The notes under the pieces were generated by a model. The model saw only the letters and a program-made list of their open reading frames with translations. It made no database searches and was not told the origin of the DNA. The translations under genes were made by a program, and so were the position numbers. A DNA stretch of 64,000 bases from a virus (lineage: Duplodnaviria; Caudoviricetes), in the IMG/VR virus record IMGVR_UViG_3300032007_000065, positions 1-64,000 of that record. One strand, 5' to 3'. Below, one piece after another: positions 13,035-57,204 of this stretch (positions are counted from its first letter, which is position 1; every line of letters begins with the position of its first letter).

Positions 13035-13433
13035 ATGAGTGAAGCTTTGCTAATGCAGAGCGCTGGATTTGGTGGTTCTACGACTAACCTAAAGATGGCT
13101 ACAAGTTATACGTATACTGATCGGAACGGTAATTGGTATAGTGCATCATTGTCACTGTCGGCACCGGGGAGTTTTGCATGTGGTGTATCGAGTTGGGTAA
13201 ACAATAGTCAATATGGCTGCTCGTGTGGCAATGGTTATACGCCTATTATGTCATCTGGTCAAAGTTCGAATTATACCGCATTATGGGTTTGGTCTTCCAA
13301 TAGTTCATCTATCTCTAATATAGTTGGATCACGGGAGTTTAGTGGGTACTGGGCTTCATATAATGGCACAACGTTTACATTTGGTCAACTTACAAATTTT
13401 AGTCAACTGATGACAGTCGTTGTTTATATTTGA
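13035..13433 (+). CDS. AT-rich small Ser/Gly/Thr/Tyr-rich protein (cassette-family member 1)
   Basis: MSEALLMQSAGFGG... (132 aa) after GGAGG; A/T-ending codons unlike its neighbours. Confidence 0.75.
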   Translation: MSEALLMQSAGFGGSTTNLKMATSYTYTDRNGNWYSASLSLSAPGSFACGVSSWVNNSQYGCSCGNGYTPIMSSGQSSNYTALWVWSSNSSSISNIVGSREFSGYWASYNGTTFTFGQLTNFSQLMTVVVYI

Positions 13434-21209: not shown

Positions 21210-21220
21210 CCACATATCAT
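21210..21220 (+). promoter_or_regulatory. Phage promoter motif CCACATATCAT
   Basis: Exact motif copy upstream of 21272. Confidence 0.65.
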
Positions 21221-21513: not shown

Positions 21514-24279
21514 TCAGATGTTGAGGTTCAGGTCTTCACCCTCGCCACCGGCGGGCTGTTCAGCTCCAGCTTCGGGTGCTCCGGGTTCCGGCGCTTCATC
21601 CATTCCGGGGATTCCGGAGACGACGTCGTCGGGGTTCTCGACCTTGGCCATTTCGTTCATGGCTTCGACGGTCTGTTTCTTGACCTTGTCACCCATAACT
21701 TCGGCCACTGCCTGTTCATAGAGGTCATCGAGGTTGTCCCAGTCGAGGAACGGCACCTCGCGACGAACGATCTTTTCGGTGTATACGGACTTGATGCGCA
21801 TGTCGGCCGGTTCACTCTTGTCTTCGCCGACCTTAACGTTGGCCAGCATCTGGGCGTTCTGGTAGGCGGTGCCGAGGGCTTCGGAGTTATTCTGGTTCGC
21901 CAGAATCCTGGGCCTCGGCAGTTTCACCTGCAGGGTACCAACGACGAGATTCTTCAGAGTGTCGTCCATGTCGGAGTCTCGGACCAGACAGCGATAGAGT
22001 TCCGTCAGGGGCTCTTCGAAGTCGCTCTGGAGAGATGCTACACGTCCGGCCACTTTGATGTTGTCGGAGACGATCTTCTTGGCAACTTCGACATTCGACT
22101 CGTAGTCCATGGCCGTCGGCGGAATGCCGGTGGCTAGGATGCCCCAGCGTTCCAGCATCTGTTCGTAGTCCGTCGACAGGTTGATGTCCTGACCCTCCTG
22201 GGTCTCAAAGTCGACGAGTCGATTGCCGGACAGATCCTTCGGCATTGCAATGTTCGAGTCTCTGGTAATCTTCGAGAACACCATGGAGCTCGACAGAAGG
22301 TCGGTGAACGTGACGTTGCCGGCCTGGAGGTCTCGGATGACGCGGTTCACCTGATTCGACAGGGACTTCGTCACCTTACCACTCGAGATGTGGGCGATGG
22401 TCTTGTTGCCACCTTTGTTGATGTAGTTCAGCATCTTGGTGATGACGATCGACAGCAGCAGATGGGCCGGGAACATGGCCTCCGACAGAATCGATTCGCC
22501 GTGGCCGTTCTCGTCTTCGTTGCACTTGAACTCGATCATGTTGTCGACGGGAATGAACTGGATCATGTAGTCGTTGTCAACGAGTCCATTGGCAATGATG
22601 CACTCGGCGATGAGCTGCTTGAAGGCAGCATTCTTTTTGACGAACTTCACCGAGAACTGGTCGATGATGGCACCGGAGATGCTGTCGACGATGTTCTGGA
22701 TGGCGTCCTGTTTCTTCTTCTCGGAGATGTCCATCTGGTCGAAGAGAGACATGGAGGCGCCGGTCAAGATGCCGCCAATCTCGGTGCCGTGGCCACCGGT
22801 CTTGGAGCCGCGGCCGCGACGTTTCCGATTCTTCGGTGTCGCGATGACGTGGTAGTAGCCGACCCGCTGGCCAAGTACCTCGATGGGGATGACGTACTTG
22901 TAGTCGATCCACTTCAGATAGGTGCCGGAGACGCCGTCGAAGTTCTGGCCGCGACGACGGTTCGTCGGATCGTCGGGGTCGACGGTGCCGTCGGGGACTC
23001 TGTCGTCGTAGGACCTCGGCGCATTCGCCACGTCAGCCTTCGACTTGGTCGACTCCCGGTAGTCCTTTCGGAGATTGAAGAAGTCGTTGTAGCCCTCCAT
23101 GGCAATGGTGGCCGTGTCGTCGATGGCCGAGAACATGATCGGCGAATCGATGAAGTAGAAGTTCGGCATGTCGGCTTCAATAGCGCCGACGAGCTTCTTC
23201 GAGAACTCCTCTGCGGTGACGGCGTTTCCGTCCTGGTCACGGCCGAATCGAGTCGCCTGTTCAATGGCACCGGAGACGGCGTCACGAATCAGGGTGCTGT
23301 CGAGGTCGGCCTTGTAGACGAATCCGTCTCGGGCCAGGTACTTCATTTCGGAACCGAAGTTCTCGAAAGCCGGTTCGAAGCCGAACTGTTGGATTGGGCG
23401 CAGCGGAGCGACGTATCCTTCAAAGGCTTCACTGAGGCCGGCGTTCTGTTGGGACTCCTGGGCGATGCCGAGGACATTTGGCTTCGAGGGCTTGCGTCCG
23501 TTGCCGCCGGCGATGGTGCCGGGACTGTCGTGGGGGTCTCCCATGCGGGCATTCGTCGTCTGCTGGGCGCCGAGCTTCGTGATCTTTCCTTCGGCGAGGC
23601 CTCGGCTGTACATGCCAAAGAGCTCCGTGTAGGGAATGTGGTAGACATAGAAGGATCCGGTCACCAGTGTCTTGCGGATGGCGACCTTGACCTTACGCTG
23701 GATCTTGTACTGGTCCTCCAGGGTCTCGATGGCCTTTGTAGCGAGACGAAGCGAGTTGTCGTCGGAGATGCCGGGGATCAGCAGGTTTCGTGTAATGGTC
23801 TGAGAGACGTCGTCCGACGAGACAATGGCATCGAGATAAATGCGCACGGCCTCGCCCAACGACGGGATGAATTTCGAAATGAACTTCAGATCGGACACTT
23901 CGAGATAGCGATTCTTGTGGATGTCCTGGAAGTATCCGAAGATCTCGCCGACGTTCTGTGTGAATAGGTCGGCAGTGTCGACGGACGGTGCCCGATTTCC
24001 GCCACGCGGGCGAATCCGTTTGCCGTCCTGCTGCGCCCGGATGGACGCGATGAAGTCGACGATCTGGTTGCCGGCGACGCCCTTGGCGACGTCGAGCTGT
24101 CGGTCGATGACACGCTGGAATTCGGCATCCTGCTCCGACAGCAGCTTCCGGTCGGTGTACGTGGGGTCGGTGGCCTGCAGCACTCGGTTGACGGCCCGGT
24201 CGAGCAGCGATGCTCTCTTCATGGCCTGGTTGTACTGCTGACTACTCATCGACTCCTGAATATCTTTATCGTCGGGCAT
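21514..24279 (-). CDS. Portal protein (putative)
   Basis: 921 aa; GESILSEAMFPAHLLLSIV...NYINKGGNK and GIPPTAMD resemble T4 gp20-type portal segments; located in the virion gene region. Confidence 0.65.
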   Translation of the reverse strand: MPDDKDIQESMSSQQYNQAMKRASLLDRAVNRVLQATDPTYTDRKLLSEQDAEFQRVIDRQLDVAKGVAGNQIVDFIASIRAQQDGKRIRPRGGNRAPSVDTADLFTQNVGEIFGYFQDIHKNRYLEVSDLKFISKFIPSLGEAVRIYLDAIVSSDDVSQTITRNLLIPGISDDNSLRLATKAIETLEDQYKIQRKVKVAIRKTLVTGSFYVYHIPYTELFGMYSRGLAEGKITKLGAQQTTNARMGDPHDSPGTIAGGNGRKPSKPNVLGIAQESQQNAGLSEAFEGYVAPLRPIQQFGFEPAFENFGSEMKYLARDGFVYKADLDSTLIRDAVSGAIEQATRFGRDQDGNAVTAEEFSKKLVGAIEADMPNFYFIDSPIMFSAIDDTATIAMEGYNDFFNLRKDYRESTKSKADVANAPRSYDDRVPDGTVDPDDPTNRRRGQNFDGVSGTYLKWIDYKYVIPIEVLGQRVGYYHVIATPKNRKRRGRGSKTGGHGTEIGGILTGASMSLFDQMDISEKKKQDAIQNIVDSISGAIIDQFSVKFVKKNAAFKQLIAECIIANGLVDNDYMIQFIPVDNMIEFKCNEDENGHGESILSEAMFPAHLLLSIVITKMLNYINKGGNKTIAHISSGKVTKSLSNQVNRVIRDLQAGNVTFTDLLSSSMVFSKITRDSNIAMPKDLSGNRLVDFETQEGQDINLSTDYEQMLERWGILATGIPPTAMDYESNVEVAKKIVSDNIKVAGRVASLQSDFEEPLTELYRCLVRDSDMDDTLKNLVVGTLQVKLPRPRILANQNNSEALGTAYQNAQMLANVKVGEDKSEPADMRIKSVYTEKIVRREVPFLDWDNLDDLYEQAVAEVMGDKVKKQTVEAMNEMAKVENPDDVVSGIPGMDEAPEPGAPEAGAEQPAGGEGEDLNLNI

Positions 24280-24349
24280 TGGTTTTCACCACCTTGTGAT
24301 TTTCGACGTATTAACCCGATGTTTCCGAGCCAGTATCCTACGGGACCTG

Positions 24350-24391
24350 AGCGAAAAGTCTCGAATTTCGGCCACATATAATTCTAGTGAG
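24350..24391 (+). promoter_or_regulatory. Stable-RNA-type promoter, copy 1
   Basis: agcgaaaagtctcga-N7-ccacatataattct-N-gtgag; same blocks and spacing at 30632. Confidence 0.8.
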
Positions 24392-24405
24392 AAAACATGG
24401 AGAAA

Positions 24406-24478
24406 CATACCGAAGTTCTAGTGGTGGAACGCAAGTCCAGAAAACTTGAGGTTGTCGGTTCGAGTCCGGCCGGTGCGG
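24406..24478 (+). tRNA. tRNA-like gene, anticodon AGA (Ser?), atypical or pseudo
   Basis: Acceptor cataccg/cggtgcg (one mismatch), D stem gttc/gaac, anticodon stem caagt/acttg with loop cc-aga-aa, T arm gtcgg-ttcgagt-ccggc; no encoded CCA. Confidence 0.7.
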
Positions 24479-24533
24479 GGCGCAAGCTCCGCGCTATGTT
24501 TTCTTGCTAGTGAATCTTCTTTTTTGTTGCTGG

Positions 24534-24580
24534 GGAACGACTGCTGTTGGCACCGTAAGAGTTTTGTCGTTTCATTTTCA
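24534..24580 (+). repeat. Cassette-associated hairpin site S1
   Basis: ggaacgac-t-GCTGTTG-gcaccg-TAAGAGt-ttt-GTCgtttc-attttca. Confidence 0.85.
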
Positions 24581-24593
24581 CAATATCTTCATC

Positions 24594-24968
24594 ATGAGCA
24601 ATGCACTTCTGGCGATGTCCGGCCCAGCTTTCGGCAATATGGATGTTACTGTCTACGATGTCTACACAGTTACATCTAGCGAGAATCTTGTATCATCTAG
24701 CAACGCCATCACGATTTTCTCCAATCGCTCATGGACCTGGGCGTTTGTGGATATGCAGAATGCGGGTATAATGATAGCGAGACCATTTGCTATCAAGAAT
24801 TCAGTCAATTTTCAAGACAAGCAAATTTATGGGTTGCAGGGCAATAGTACTACTAGTTTCAATGTAACACTGATTGGCACATCTACTAGTCTACGGGGCG
24901 GGATGATGCCATATACCAATGCCCCATATTACTTCTGGACAATCACCGTCTATGTTCCATCTGCATAA
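24594..24968 (+). CDS. AT-rich cassette protein A (124 aa)
   Basis: MSNALLAMSGPAFG...WTITVYVPSA; no SD; 51 nt after the S1 core start. Confidence 0.75.
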   Translation: MSNALLAMSGPAFGNMDVTVYDVYTVTSSENLVSSSNAITIFSNRSWTWAFVDMQNAGIMIARPFAIKNSVNFQDKQIYGLQGNSTTSFNVTLIGTSTSLRGGMMPYTNAPYYFWTITVYVPSA

Positions 24969-25012
24969 CTCATCGCTGTTGCGTCGTAAGAGCTTCAGTC
25001 GTTTCATTTTCA
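24965..25012 (+). repeat. Cassette-associated hairpin site S2
   Basis: ataact-catc-GCTGTTG-cgtcg-TAAGAGc-ttca-GTCgtttcattttca; overlaps the stop of cassette A. Confidence 0.85.
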
Positions 25013-25024
25013 ACTTTCTTCTCT

Positions 25025-25363
25025 ATGGCAGATTCTCTTGGCACTTTCTGCATTGCCTCGGCCGGCAGCGGATCGACAACTGTGACTCTGGTCGCAAGTG
25101 GAGCAGCATCAGGCGGCACATCTGTTACTCTATCATCGGCGGCAGTATTCGTCATGTGCCGACCAATAACATGGTATGGGGCATCCATAACGTCTAGCAC
25201 ACTATGCGTGATCGCTGGAGGGCGGGCGACTGCAGGCTATGATCATCCAGGTGGCGTTACTTATCAGGCGACTGCATCATTAGCTTCTTCTGGAACTACA
25301 CTAACCCTGGGAAATTGGACCGGTGGTTATACCGCAACTTGGGAGTACAATGCATTTGCATGA
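25025..25363 (+). CDS. AT-rich cassette protein B (112 aa)
   Basis: MADSLGTFCIASAGSG...TWEYNAFA; no SD; 50 nt after the S2 core start. Confidence 0.75.
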   Translation: MADSLGTFCIASAGSGSTTVTLVASGAASGGTSVTLSSAAVFVMCRPITWYGASITSSTLCVIAGGRATAGYDHPGGVTYQATASLASSGTTLTLGNWTGGYTATWEYNAFA

Positions 25364-25492
25364 CCGCCGTCACATACCCGACCGAAGATGTGCGAGCCGA
25401 GCCTGGTCGACATGCCGGGGTCTGAAGGCCGCGAAAAAATCCGCCCGGTGGGCGGCGCGGCGCGCCTTCCGCTCCCTTCGGTCGCGCTTTTT

Positions 25493-25522
25493 AGAGACGA
25501 ATTGCTGGTGCAATTCGTCTCT
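25493..25522. terminator. Hairpin/terminator between convergent genes
   Basis: agagacgaattgc-tggt-gcaattcgtctct. Confidence 0.7.
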
Positions 25523-25527
25523 TGATG

Positions 25528-26454
25528 TTACTGCAGTTTCTTTTTGAGTGTGTCGATCTCGGTGTTGAGCTCGGCGATGTATCGATTGATGTCGTAGAGA
25601 CTCCTGGACAGATTCGCAGTCTTGGCTTGGAGCAATTCAATGGATGCCATGACTTCAGCTTTATCGATGACATCCTGGTTCGGCTCTTCGATAGGCTCGT
25701 CGAATGTCAGGACGGCATCGATGATGCGAGTGGTGCTCGTCAGCTTGCTGATGCCGAGATCTGGGCACTTGAAGATGAAGGATCCGCCACCATCGAGTTT
25801 GATGATGTCTCGGAACCCAGCTCCTTTGATCTGGTTGAAGAACTCCATACCGTAGATGAGGTTACCGGTCTTCGATTGGTAGTACATGACGTAGACCATT
25901 GACGGGTCATCTTTGACACCGACGAAGACATGGTATGCCGCTCTGACGGTGTCCTTGGCCCAGCCCTGAGGTAGCACGTAGTTGTAGAACGACACGTCGT
26001 CACCATTCCGAAGCACCGGCACACCGGAGACGGCATAGTCGGCATTTTCGTGCCCAGTGAGGTATTCGGTGTCTTTGATGGTCGCCTTCCCGTTCTCGAT
26101 GAAGAGAGTCGACGGCGCATGGCCGTAGCAGGGATTCATGTACTCCCATTTACCACTGTCGAAGGTGAACTTCCGGCCGTCGTTGGAGATCTTGCCGCGC
26201 TCGTGCATGTAATGCTCTTCGATGTCGTGGAGTTTGAAGCCGGGATAGATGTCGCATTTCAGATGGCCCGCCGGAAGACGGAACTCGATACCTTTCTCTT
26301 CGTAGTATCCGAAGAAGTTGGCATTGCAGAAGTTGCCGTCTCGAGTGACGTCGCCGCCGGTCCGCTTCTCACGATCGAGCCAGACGACCTTCAGCATGGA
26401 GGCCGGCATCTCGACAATGGTGACGTCGTTGTACATGTAAGTCTTCTTCAGCAT
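25528..26454 (-). CDS. Phosphodiester glycosidase (NAGPA-like) protein with C-terminal coiled coil
   Basis: CNANFFG, AVSGVPVLRNG, RAAY..VG, KLDGGGS; ATG 26454 after GAAAGGAG. Confidence 0.8.
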   Translation of the reverse strand: MLKKTYMYNDVTIVEMPASMLKVVWLDREKRTGGDVTRDGNFCNANFFGYYEEKGIEFRLPAGHLKCDIYPGFKLHDIEEHYMHERGKISNDGRKFTFDSGKWEYMNPCYGHAPSTLFIENGKATIKDTEYLTGHENADYAVSGVPVLRNGDDVSFYNYVLPQGWAKDTVRAAYHVFVGVKDDPSMVYVMYYQSKTGNLIYGMEFFNQIKGAGFRDIIKLDGGGSFIFKCPDLGISKLTSTTRIIDAVLTFDEPIEEPNQDVIDKAEVMASIELLQAKTANLSRSLYDINRYIAELNTEIDTLKKKLQ

Positions 26455-26480
26455 AGATTCGGCTCCTTTCGACTTGATTA

Positions 26481-26525
26481 TGGGATTGCTTGCTGTTGCC
26501 TGGTAAGAGCTTTGTCGTACCATTC
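26481..26525 (+). repeat. Cassette-associated hairpin site S3
   Basis: tgggattgc-tt-GCTGTTG-cctgg-TAAGAGc-ttt-GTCgtaccatt. Confidence 0.85.
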
Positions 26526-26542
26526 TACGCGATTCAATTTAT

Positions 26543-26830
26543 ATGGCCAATGCGCTTCTTGCTGCCGGGGTTATTGAGAGCTCTGACCATGATTTATTAA
26601 CTGCACATCAAGGATATGGGACTAGAGATAATCCACTTTTTACATCATCGTCGACTGCTCTCCTTGGAATATTCACTCCTTTCTTTGGTTACTGCATACC
26701 GGTAATAAATGCTCCAGGAAATACCATTGCGACTCCAGAGGGGCAGTGTCAAATTGTATGGAATATCTCTGGACAATGTACTGCTCAAGGCAGTTTTTCA
26801 GATACTATCTATTGGGTATATATCGAGTGA
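26543..26830 (+). CDS. AT-rich cassette protein C (95 aa)
   Basis: MANALLAAGVIES...TIYWVYIE; no SD; 51 nt after the S3 core start. Confidence 0.75.
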   Translation: MANALLAAGVIESSDHDLLTAHQGYGTRDNPLFTSSSTALLGIFTPFFGYCIPVINAPGNTIATPEGQCQIVWNISGQCTAQGSFSDTIYWVYIE

Positions 26831-26867
26831 CTTGCTGTTGCACACTAAGAGCTTTGTCACACATTCA
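26827..26867 (+). repeat. Cassette-associated hairpin site S4
   Basis: gtgac-tt-GCTGTTG-cacac-TAAGAGc-ttt-GTCac-acattca; the TGA stop of cassette C lies in the left arm. Confidence 0.85.
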
Positions 26868-26881
26868 CATACTACTATACA

Positions 26882-27262
26882 ATGGCAGAATCTCTCATCT
26901 CGGCAAGCATCTCGGCCGGAGGATCTAATGCGAATATTTCTCTCATCGCATCTGGCTCATTTTATGTATATACCAGATCACAAACGATTTCTTTTTCTAA
27001 TGGCTTATTTGCAGTAATATTTAGCAACCATGCACGCAATGGCTGGAATAGTAACGAAGCGATGGAACCGGGATATGCCGTGGTATTTGCTGGAGACACT
27101 GGTATATCGACACCACCATATCGTTATGCCAATGGTACGGCTGTTGATACTAGCGCTAAGGCATCCATGACCACTAGTACATTGACAATCGGTGCTGTCA
27201 TAACTGGAAATTGGCAAGAAACGTATTATCAAAAGTCTGGTACATACCGAATTGTCGGATGA
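26882..27262 (+). CDS. AT-rich cassette protein D (126 aa)
   Basis: MAESLISASISAGGS...GTYRIVG; no SD; 48 nt after the S4 core start. Confidence 0.75.
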   Translation: MAESLISASISAGGSNANISLIASGSFYVYTRSQTISFSNGLFAVIFSNHARNGWNSNEAMEPGYAVVFAGDTGISTPPYRYANGTAVDTSAKASMTTSTLTIGAVITGNWQETYYQKSGTYRIVG

Positions 27263-27394
27263 CTGACCCGGGGAAGGCCCGAAAGGAGCCAGCTTTTAAG
27301 GGTATCAGCCGCGGGCGCGACGGGTTCGCGCAGTTTACGTTTTAATGTACCACAGAGACAGACACCTATCTAAACGAATCGAGTTGTCTAAGGA

Positions 27395-28195
27395 GTGATC
27401 CAATTGGCACTTAATTTCGGAGACTACATCGCGAATCCCTATGGAAAGGGAACGGGAATCGTACCGTCGAACGTCATCCGATCGAACATCGAGAACGAGA
27501 CGGCGACGATGTACCCGGCTCCCATTCGATTCAAGGCCTACAAAGCTCCCCACCAACATCTGGTGCTGCACTGTAAGCTGCCGTCACGTACGAAGAATGA
27601 CGTCTTCTACGACATCGTCATGGACTTCGACCTGGCCCCGGGTTTCGAGACCAGACGGGCCATCACGAAGTACGACTGTACCGTCTTCTCGAACTCTCCA
27701 TCGTTCTACTACACCTATGCCAAGGTGTTCCGGGAGAAGGGAGCACTTTGCCCCTGGCTCCAGAAGAAGTACGAACGCCAGATCATGAAGAAGAGTCCGG
27801 AGAAACGGAATCCATCGAACATTATCGGCTACGAGCGAACGCTCTACACCGGCATGTGGGTGACGATGCAGCAGACGAGAGGCCGCAGTGCGCGAGACCT
27901 CTACGATAATGCACCGGAAATGACCTACAAGGAGCTGGCGAAGCTCGTTCAGTCCCAGGACGAAATCGAGACCGCCTACGAGAAGGCCCCGTACACCGCT
28001 CGGGAGCAGGCCCGCCGCAACGACATCGAACAGCGGAAGCTGCTACGGCAGAACCTCGGCCCGAAACGGCCGCTGAAACCGAAGACCACGGCACCGACGT
28101 CGTCGACTGTCCAGAGAACTTCGACGACCCAGAAGACAAAGAAGACGAGTCTCTTCTCGAAGATTCGCCACACGACGAAGACGAAGAAGATATGA
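27395..28195 (+). CDS. Hypothetical protein with basic C-terminal tail
   Basis: GTG start after AAGGAG; 266 aa; typical codon usage. Confidence 0.75.
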   Translation: MIQLALNFGDYIANPYGKGTGIVPSNVIRSNIENETATMYPAPIRFKAYKAPHQHLVLHCKLPSRTKNDVFYDIVMDFDLAPGFETRRAITKYDCTVFSNSPSFYYTYAKVFREKGALCPWLQKKYERQIMKKSPEKRNPSNIIGYERTLYTGMWVTMQQTRGRSARDLYDNAPEMTYKELAKLVQSQDEIETAYEKAPYTAREQARRNDIEQRKLLRQNLGPKRPLKPKTTAPTSSTVQRTSTTQKTKKTSLFSKIRHTTKTKKI

Positions 28196-30631: not shown

Positions 30632-30673
30632 AGCGAAAAGTCTCGATTTTAATCCACATATAATTCTTGTGAG
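30632..30673 (+). promoter_or_regulatory. Stable-RNA-type promoter, copy 2
   Basis: agcgaaaagtctcga-N7-ccacatataattct-N-gtgag, matching 24350-24391. Confidence 0.8.
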
Positions 30674-30865
30674 CAAACGGTGAAGAGTGGATAGCCGGTT
30701 GCTCGAAAAATGGTTCCTAGCTGCTCGGGACAAAGAGAGCGGTCGACGTCGCAGCGTCGAAATTAAATGTCGCCGTCTCCTGCTGAGGGACGTTGGTTCA
30801 GAAGCGACGAGTGGCGTAGTTTATGCCAGAAAGAAAAGATGTGACACTCCACAGCTTTTCTTTTT
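30670..30865 (+). ncRNA. Putative structured non-coding RNA (about 195 nt)
   Basis: Bounded by the tRNA-type promoter and a U-tailed hairpin; stems gagcaa/ttgctc, cgacg/cgtcg, gtcgc/gcgac, ggcgta/tatgcc. Confidence 0.55.
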
Positions 30866-56820: not shown

Positions 56821-57204
56821 TTAGAAATAGATAACAGTGCACGGAGAAAAGAAATAAGTAGTGCCGTAGTTATAAACATATGACTGTGTTACACCAGTTG
56901 AAGTCACTGTAAATGAGCACGAAATAGTTGCAATACTTGTACCATTGAAGTATACTATAGTACACGTGCCACTGCTTCCTGCCATAACAACACAGCCACC
57001 ATGTCCCGGATATATTGTAGCTCTAGAATCGGCATAGCATCCAGTACAAATGCAGACTGCTGCAGAAATACCAGTCGCATTGGATACGCATGTACGTGAT
57101 GTAGAAGCTCGCTCTGAATAGCCATCGCAAGATACTGCACCAATAGTTGCAGCACTATTTCCACTCACGTCACTGTCGAATCTCAAAGCTAATCCTTCAC
57201 TCAT
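56821..57204 (-). CDS. AT-rich small protein (cassette-family member 6)
   Basis: MSEGLALRFDSDVSG...PCTVIYF (127 aa); alternative start at 57279 has an SD 12 nt upstream. Confidence 0.7.
   Translation of the reverse strand: MSEGLALRFDSDVSGNSAATIGAVSCDGYSERASTSRTCVSNATGISAAVCICTGCYADSRATIYPGHGGCVVMAGSSGTCTIVYFNGTSIATISCSFTVTSTGVTQSYVYNYGTTYFFSPCTVIYF

Follow-up and report, generated by a model that had tools for sequence, protein, structure and literature searches.

Bases 1 to 64,000 of the 77,897-bp IMG/VR virus record IMGVR_UViG_3300032007_000065 (hereafter the window) include a 3-kb block with the order tRNA-like gene, sm1, sm2, inverted lysin-like gene, sm3 and sm4, in which a sequence of about 50 nucleotides (nt) is repeated four times, as sites S1 to S4, each upstream of one of the small genes sm1 to sm4 (Table 1). 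We lean, with moderate confidence, towards considering these sites as promoter-bearing regulatory cassettes that travel with each gene of a hypervariable class whose products share an N-terminal tag, that is, as an analogue of the promoter-early stem-loops (PeSLs) of T4-like phages. By definition, a PeSL combines a promoter with a stem-loop and precedes an ORFan in a hyperplastic region (PMC2839356, PMC4122927). The record, with a completeness of 32% according to CheckV, represents about a third of a genome, and the window genes include those for a large terminase, a tail sheath, a portal and RNA-polymerase-like subunits. Since these subunits are present and the best matches of the portal among named phages are the portals of the Bacillus phages AR9 and PBS1 (25% identity), the record is part of the genome of an AR9-like jumbo phage with multisubunit RNA polymerases of its own.

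A first-pass annotation, made by a model from the letters of the window, had described four copies of the site, 51, 50, 51 and 48 nt before the ATG codons of four open reading frames (ORFs). Both number and spacing were confirmed: the pattern GCTGTTG-N5/6-TAAGAG occurs exactly four times, always on the plus strand, and was found 0 times in 100 shuffles. No fifth copy was found when the whole 77,897-bp record was searched, and allowing two mismatches added just two matches, which are intragenic and chance-like. The coordinates also confirm that the repeated unit consists of a site followed by an ORF, with S2 and S4 beginning 6 and 3 nt past the preceding stop codon. Conservation starts 2-3 nt 5′ of the site, spans the leader and reaches into the first five codons; similarity is at the random level in the 30 nt upstream of the sites and in the coding bodies. 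With its place 5′ of the ORF, a fixed spacing to the ATG and conservation that passes without a break into the first codons, the site is positioned like an expression signal and not like attC. An over-long ORF call from a relative (P0009) reads through S1 with the core letters unchanged and sm1 strongly diverged. As for the conserved hairpin that had been attributed to the site, an inverted repeat is indeed present; it is an imperfect 7-bp repeat (3 bp, a G-G mismatch, 2 bp and one G-T pair) around a variable loop of 5-6 nt, and its folding energy is no better than that of shuffled sequence (z-scores of -0.5 to -1.25). The hairpin is strand-biased, with the G-T pair forming on the sense strand only. 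An exact 12-nt match between the S3 leader and a non-coding guide-like array of the same phage (G000, the record of the window, 68258-68269, beyond the window; E-value 0.014) was judged to be due to chance, and the site was rejected as a target of this guide-RNA array.

The four ORFs have the sizes that had been reported for them (95 to 126 amino acids) and share only an N-terminal pattern, as had also been noticed. This tag has the form M-(S/A)-(E/D/N)-(A/S/G)-(L/F/I). Four different codons specify its leucine at position 5 and two codon families its serine, so that the tag is conserved at the peptide level. Blastp among the 40 family members compared links a few recent duplicates only, and the profile comparison of the six window paralogues with hhalign (sm1 to sm6, Table 1) aligns the first 20-38 residues at a probability below 10%. 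No homology was detectable between the ORF bodies, the likeness being confined to the element and the first codons. The use of A/T-ending codons in a genome of C-ending codons, another feature first seen in the letters, is reflected in a G+C content at third codon positions (GC3) of 0.35 for the small genes versus 0.76 for bulk genes. Serine makes up 14% of their residues, and TCT is their top serine codon (27% vs 10% elsewhere). A Shine-Dalgarno (SD) sequence (GGAG, GAGG or AGGA at -20 to -4) precedes none of the four small genes and 30 of 49 other genes; its absence from the small genes is therefore real, whereas the statement that almost every other gene has one is somewhat overstated by this strict count.

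The small proteins could not be assigned to any Pfam or PHROG family, and a profile search of 1.84 billion proteins returned close relatives of the six paralogues only. A profile search of the PDB gave no match, the ESM Atlas gave nothing usable, the AlphaFold2 model obtained was unusable (predicted local distance difference test, pLDDT, 36), and no further family members came from an iterated hidden Markov model search of five genomes. A set of small, beta-rich, otherwise unrelated proteins with a common N-terminal peptide suggests that this peptide is a sorting, assembly or processing tag; a role of the proteins as receptor-binding tips, which the first-pass annotation had considered, is pure speculation. 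The internal proteins of phage T4 are also diverse and small and have a common N-terminal capsid-targeting sequence; their genes form a polymorphic locus close to those for the head. They may be compared with the present set in that diverse small proteins share a short N-terminal peptide only, although the tag described here has only about 5 residues.

The same module is present in related phages, the portals of which are about 58% identical. Four related records (G001 to G004) were screened for ORFs of 70-300 amino acids starting with the tag, the family being defined in these relatives by a signature consisting of tag, size, GC3 and element and not by demonstrable homology. The screen found at least 21 tagged ORFs in G002, 8-9 in G003, 3 in G004 and 2 in G001, all with an ATG start and nearly all without SD. 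Those of G002 are located in arrays at 5.1-9.7, 14.3-15.6, 29.1-35.2 and 167.9-169.1 kb and as single units; its arrays (L172:5073-9663; L173:9143-15222; L180:7873-9065) include up to seven tagged small genes. The GC3 of the G002 tagged ORFs is 0.26-0.38, and that of typical long ORFs in the relatives is 0.5-0.64 or more. Because the tagged ORFs have a low GC3 in every relative and the long ORFs a higher one, low GC3 is a clade-wide trait of the class and not a mark of recent import.

A small hairpin is found within about 190 nt upstream of 19 tagged ORFs in G002 and 7-8 in G003, against a background rate of about 1 per 12 kb. Its stem of 4-7 bp changes in sequence from copy to copy with complementarity kept, its apex contains TAAG (commonly C-TGTAA-G or GTAA), and (T)TGT then follows. 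Further downstream there are a larger perfect hairpin and a T-rich run (z-score about -5), with the ATG 8-20 nt beyond them. The 3′ half of the window site, TAAG-AGC-TTTGTC, aligns with TAAG-GCTT-GTAG of the relatives; with an altered 5′ arm and without the large hairpin, the site of the window is a derived form of an older clade-wide element. The limits of the conserved segment are clear in the G002 sub-array at 29-34 kb, where the 100 nt upstream of the ATG are 77% identical, the first 30 coding bases 59%, and the body and the region further upstream 52%, which is the random level, so that identity drops sharply at the borders of the element. Each unit of this sub-array is preceded by the terminator hairpin of the previous gene. 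One G002 sub-array has a large leader hairpin with a conserved loop and a covarying stem.

The block that houses S1 to S4 is enclosed by two divergent AR9-type late promoter motifs located 3.0 kb apart, one belonging to the portal gene and the other to the next conserved gene (27395-28195). In L124 of G002 (portal 59% identical) the homologues of these two genes are adjacent and divergent, with their late motifs about 20 nt apart and nothing between them, and because the block is missing from this place it is variable and accessory. The same junction in G003 has tRNAs and two tandem small genes of this class, on the strand of the portal. Blastn of the 3-kb block against GenBank phages gave no match, and neither did a search of metagenomes with the neighbour gene of the block. 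The first-pass annotation had included two ideas, that the small proteins are variable and may be co-regulated and that the sites are comparable to the promoter stem-loop modules of T4-like phages. Both of these fit the units of site plus ORF, the variable block, the shared tag and the recurrence of the same architecture in relatives, in arrays as well as in scattered units.

The argument for a promoter within the sites comes from the insulation of the units. The terminator-like hairpin that closes the tRNA unit ends 38 nt before S1, S3 is located in an 88-nt gap between divergent genes, and sm2 and sm4 are each followed by terminator-like hairpins; scans for early and late motifs found no promoter motif on the antisense strand inside the lysin-like gene. 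Because of the terminator before S1 and the divergent position of S3, at least these two sites must bring their own promoter, unless transcription starts antisense inside the lysin-like gene. Two promoter classes are recognisable elsewhere in the phage, both read directly from intergenic regions and the early one scored by a matrix. The early-type class, CCrY-ATATCAT-N6-G, has 15 copies with at least 22 bits (the next-best position has 12 bits), precedes genes such as those for a ligase, an acetyltransferase and the tRNA as well as a duplicated non-coding unit at 30633-30690, and mirrors the layout of the AR9 early promoter, the one used by the virion polymerase, in which 6 nt separate an extended AT-rich motif from G(+1) (PMC5312081). 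The late class, (A/G)ACA-N6-TA, precedes structural genes, including the portal gene and the gene at 27395, and matches the AR9 late consensus (PMC5312081). Late motifs are also present in the upstream regions at 2069, 5009, 13498 and 33035, and a strong AAAGGAGG-type SD usually follows. One early-type promoter, at 21214 on the plus strand, lies in a gap of 306 nt that follows the portal gene and points into the 3′ end of that gene, where an antisense or short RNA is possible.

Known promoter types were rejected as explanations for the sites. With the early-type matrix, the upstream regions of the small genes reach scores of -9 to -12, compared with at least 22 for the 15 sites of that class; a sense-strand late promoter is absent from S1 to S3 and has two chance-like matches in S4; the sole 10-of-12 match to sigma-70 overlaps the ATG of sm4, and there is no common -35/-10 pair; sigma-54 and extracytoplasmic function (ECF) look-alikes are confined to S1. 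If the sites do initiate transcription, they would form a third class beside the two that this phage has in common with AR9.

This mismatch with both recognisable phage classes and with sigma-70 weighs against the sites being promoter-bearing cassettes, and it is not the only point to do so. The genes sm5 and sm6 share the tag and have no site. The covarying stems of the relatives imply a single-stranded function, for which a plain double-stranded promoter offers no explanation, and the strong hairpin and T-run before the ATG in the relatives would attenuate a transcript started upstream. Finally, recombination at the sites is hinted at only by a weak mosaic, in which the leaders of S1 and S2 are 79% alike and have an identical 15-mer, and by its first codons sm1 groups with sm3 and sm2 with sm4.

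The covariation suggests that the element works at least partly as a single strand, either RNA or extruded DNA. An RNA element might serve as leader hairpin, attenuator or binding site for a protein; extruded DNA would imply a promoter principle like that of phage N4. A fairly unlikely reading is that the site acts as RNA only, the hairpin of the transcript being bound by a phage protein and the promoters lying elsewhere; its role would then be in terminator read-through, RNA processing or SD-independent translation. This would account for stems that covary in the relatives while the apex and 3′ tail are conserved, for the G-T pair that forms solely on the sense strand in the window, for the small genes having no SD, and for the strong hairpin and T-run between the small hairpin and the ATG in relatives. 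Premature termination in 5′ untranslated regions has been documented in the giant phage 201phi2-1 (PMC11512511). On the other hand, neither a gene on the same strand nor a recognisable promoter is found upstream of S3, a terminator precedes S1, the G002 units are separated by the terminator of the previous gene, and the window hairpins are no more stable than shuffled sequence. A function as RNA can also coexist with a promoter inside the element.

We give very little credence to the sites being recombination sites for integron-like or HUH-type cassette capture, the acquisition platform that the first-pass annotation had put forward. Repeated structured sites between unrelated small ORFs, the occurrence of arrays and scattered single units in relatives, the absence of the block from L124, and a strand-biased hairpin with a mismatch speak for such a system, and arrays of this kind do resemble those of integron cassettes. 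However, integron arrays come with a tyrosine recombinase (IntI), and attC, an imperfect hairpin with extrahelical bases and R/L boxes, is found 3′ of its ORF; the site described here is 5′ of it and tied to the ATG, two family members have no site, the stem is 7 bp long with one mismatch and no extrahelical bases, and the hairpins of the relatives are perfect palindromes, likewise without extrahelical bases. The site also seems confined to this phage lineage: its pattern gave chance single matches only in IMG/VR, and in the JGI metagenomes 22 chance matches and one real match, a 1,087-bp contig 99.9% identical to the window, so that no copy was seen in another context, which is weak negative evidence. 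That no recombinase is visible in the window had been stated before and agrees with our family searches. Extending these beyond the window, as had been suggested, did not reveal one either in the approximately 570 kb of the clade that were covered for recombinases and reverse transcriptases: Phage_integrase (PF00589, tyrosine recombinases) and Resolvase (serine recombinases) had no match in G000 to G005, all of which except G005 are fragments, so that this absence is not proof, and Y1_Tnp (PF01797) and RVT_1 (PF00078) had none in G000 to G004, all fragments. A diversity-generating retroelement was looked for as well; there was no reverse transcriptase match and no long repeat pair in the block.

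It is also very improbable, in our judgement, that the conserved letters represent late promoters of the AR9 type that are read from the other strand and drive transcription away from the small genes. The idea arises because the reverse complement of the element of the relatives reads as ACA, 5-8 nt and TA, because AACA-N6-AA is found 32 nt before the ATG of the lysin-like gene on the strand opposite S3, and because the phage encodes an AR9 gp226-like specificity subunit (phrog_25005) and has clear AACA-N6-TA motifs before its structural genes. The candidate was rejected for its variable spacing, 5-8 nt versus a constant 6 nt in the true late motifs of this phage. Furthermore, the letters at -1/+1 in S1, S2 and S4 are not TA, transcription would run antisense to the tRNA-like gene, sm1 and sm3, and both the covarying stems and the tie to the downstream gene would be left unexplained.

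Returning to the sites as regulatory cassettes, we propose the following mechanism. Each site would be the 5′ cassette of an autonomous expression unit, an element of about 50 nt that bears a promoter and an imperfect stem-loop and is followed by a short, unstructured, A/U-rich leader without SD. Each unit would express a single small protein out of a hypervariable set, with the shared N-terminal tag presumably serving as a sorting, assembly or processing signal. The element would be a local, derived form of a module that is clade-wide in AR9-like jumbo phages. Arrays would grow through tandem duplication, and reshuffling would probably be ordinary homologous recombination between conserved elements, as in the case of the T4 PeSLs, without a dedicated recombinase.

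The resemblance to PeSLs lies in a short composite element that reaches from the upstream stop to the start codon and is repeated before ORFans in variable regions, which interrupt conserved modules, and in unrelated ORFs located between near-identical elements. By membership, the window sites are not PeSLs, having no sigma-70 promoter, no SD and a weak stem-loop. The lack of a sigma-70 consensus may be explained by the phage using its own multisubunit polymerases. In PeSLs the stem-loop is stable and acts as a terminator; the z-scores here are -0.5 to -1.25 in the window and about -5 for the strong hairpins of the relatives. The N-terminal peptide tag of the ORFs is a further difference. The block can also be compared with morons, autonomous units of promoter, gene and terminator in phage genomes, which are insulated accessory genes of deviant base composition between conserved genes. 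In contrast to these, the small genes belong to one class with many copies (6 in 78 kb and at least 21 in a relative of 176 kb), a common 5′ element and a tag, and low GC3 marks this class in all relatives.

The virion RNA polymerase of phage N4 uses hairpin promoters, with a short stem and a small conserved loop, that are located upstream of early genes and are recognised in single-stranded form. The element of the relatives also has a short stem and a conserved apex before genes, although the N4 enzyme is a single-subunit polymerase and none such was seen in this phage. An unlikely extension of the cassette reading, which we mention as a speculation, is that the stem-loop, with its TGT tail and conserved apex, represents a third class of promoter, which a multisubunit phage RNA polymerase would read single-stranded in the N4 manner, giving short SD-less leaders and also acting as the crossover point at which tagged hypervariable virion or injected proteins are shuffled among rumen jumbo phages.

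Several neighbouring features complete the description of the block (Table 1). The tRNA-like gene that had been placed at the head of the array was borne out by ARAGORN and Rfam. With C at position 33 and no long variable arm, it is unlike a bacterial tRNA-Ser; its anticodon, AGA, stands alongside TCT as the top serine codon of the small genes. A 15-nt inverted repeat (24384-24398 and 24496-24510) pairs the tRNA leader with the trailer like a processing stem, and a region of about 50 nt with the tRNA promoter (24351-24400) is duplicated before the second, apparently non-coding unit at 30633-30690. The inverted gene in the middle of the array had been described as a glycosidase gene of normal G+C content. 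Its composition is indeed normal; its own NAGPA match in Pfam is below threshold (E-value 0.024), and it is the homologues that support the label, since many of them fuse the NAGPA domain to amidase, M23, CHAP or peptidoglycan-binding domains, so that the product looks like a cell-wall hydrolase (lysin-like). One of these homologues is annotated from Lawsonibacter, a hint of a Gram-positive Clostridia host. Association of this gene with the small genes in relatives was considered and rejected, as no homologue of it was found in G001 to G004.

Table 1. Location of the sites, small genes and neighbouring features (window coordinates).
Feature	Position	Strand	Remarks
Site S1, putative 5′ regulatory element of sm1	24543..24593	+	Pattern; core kept in diverged relative (P0009)
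Site S2	24975..25024	+	Pattern
Site S3	26492..26542	+	Pattern; in divergent gap with lysin-like gene
Site S4	26834..26881	+	Pattern
sm1	24594..24968	+	124 amino acids; no SD; GC3 0.46-0.48
sm2	25025..25363	+	112 amino acids; no SD; GC3 0.39
sm3	26543..26830	+	95 amino acids; no SD; GC3 0.30
sm4	26882..27262	+	126 amino acids; no SD; GC3 0.34
sm5	13035..13433	+	Same N-terminal tag; low GC3; SD present; no site
sm6	56821..57204	-	Same N-terminal tag; low GC3; no SD; no site
Portal gene	21514-24279	-	
AR9-type late promoter motif (AACA-N6-TA) of portal, left edge of variable block	24312..24323	-	Homologous motif at L124 junction
Early-type promoter (CCAC-ATATAAT-N6-G class), putatively driving tRNA-like gene	24372..24395	+	One of 15 sites with at least 22 bits
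tRNA-like gene	24406..24478	+	73 nt; anticodon AGA; no long variable arm; ARAGORN; Rfam 37.3 bits
Terminator-like hairpin and T-run closing tRNA unit	24472..24505	+	
Hairpins between convergent sm2 and lysin-like genes (terminator region)	25441..25524	.	
Lysin-like gene	25528..26454	-	NAGPA-type glycosidase domain; C-terminal coiled coil; normal GC3 (0.72); SD present
Weak terminator-like hairpin after sm4	27315..27340	+	
Late promoter motif (AR9-type) ahead of the conserved gene 27395-28195; right boundary of variable block	27361..27372	+	
Early-type promoter class	11474, 20438, 21214, 37162, 37886, 40087, 48319, 57306, 24376, 30658	+	Three further copies beyond the window
Early-type promoter class	52899, 1992	-	

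If the cassette reading is correct, AR9-like jumbo phages would have their own equivalent of the PeSL/ORFan system of T4, in which a dedicated, structured 5′ cassette expresses, and probably helps to shuffle, dozens of unrelated tagged small proteins. The element would be a candidate for a third class of promoters or leaders used by non-canonical phage RNA polymerases, and the small genes would be a natural set of SD-independent starts against a background of genes with strong SDs. Their products would then represent a defined repertoire of hypervariable proteins, likely at the phage-host interface.

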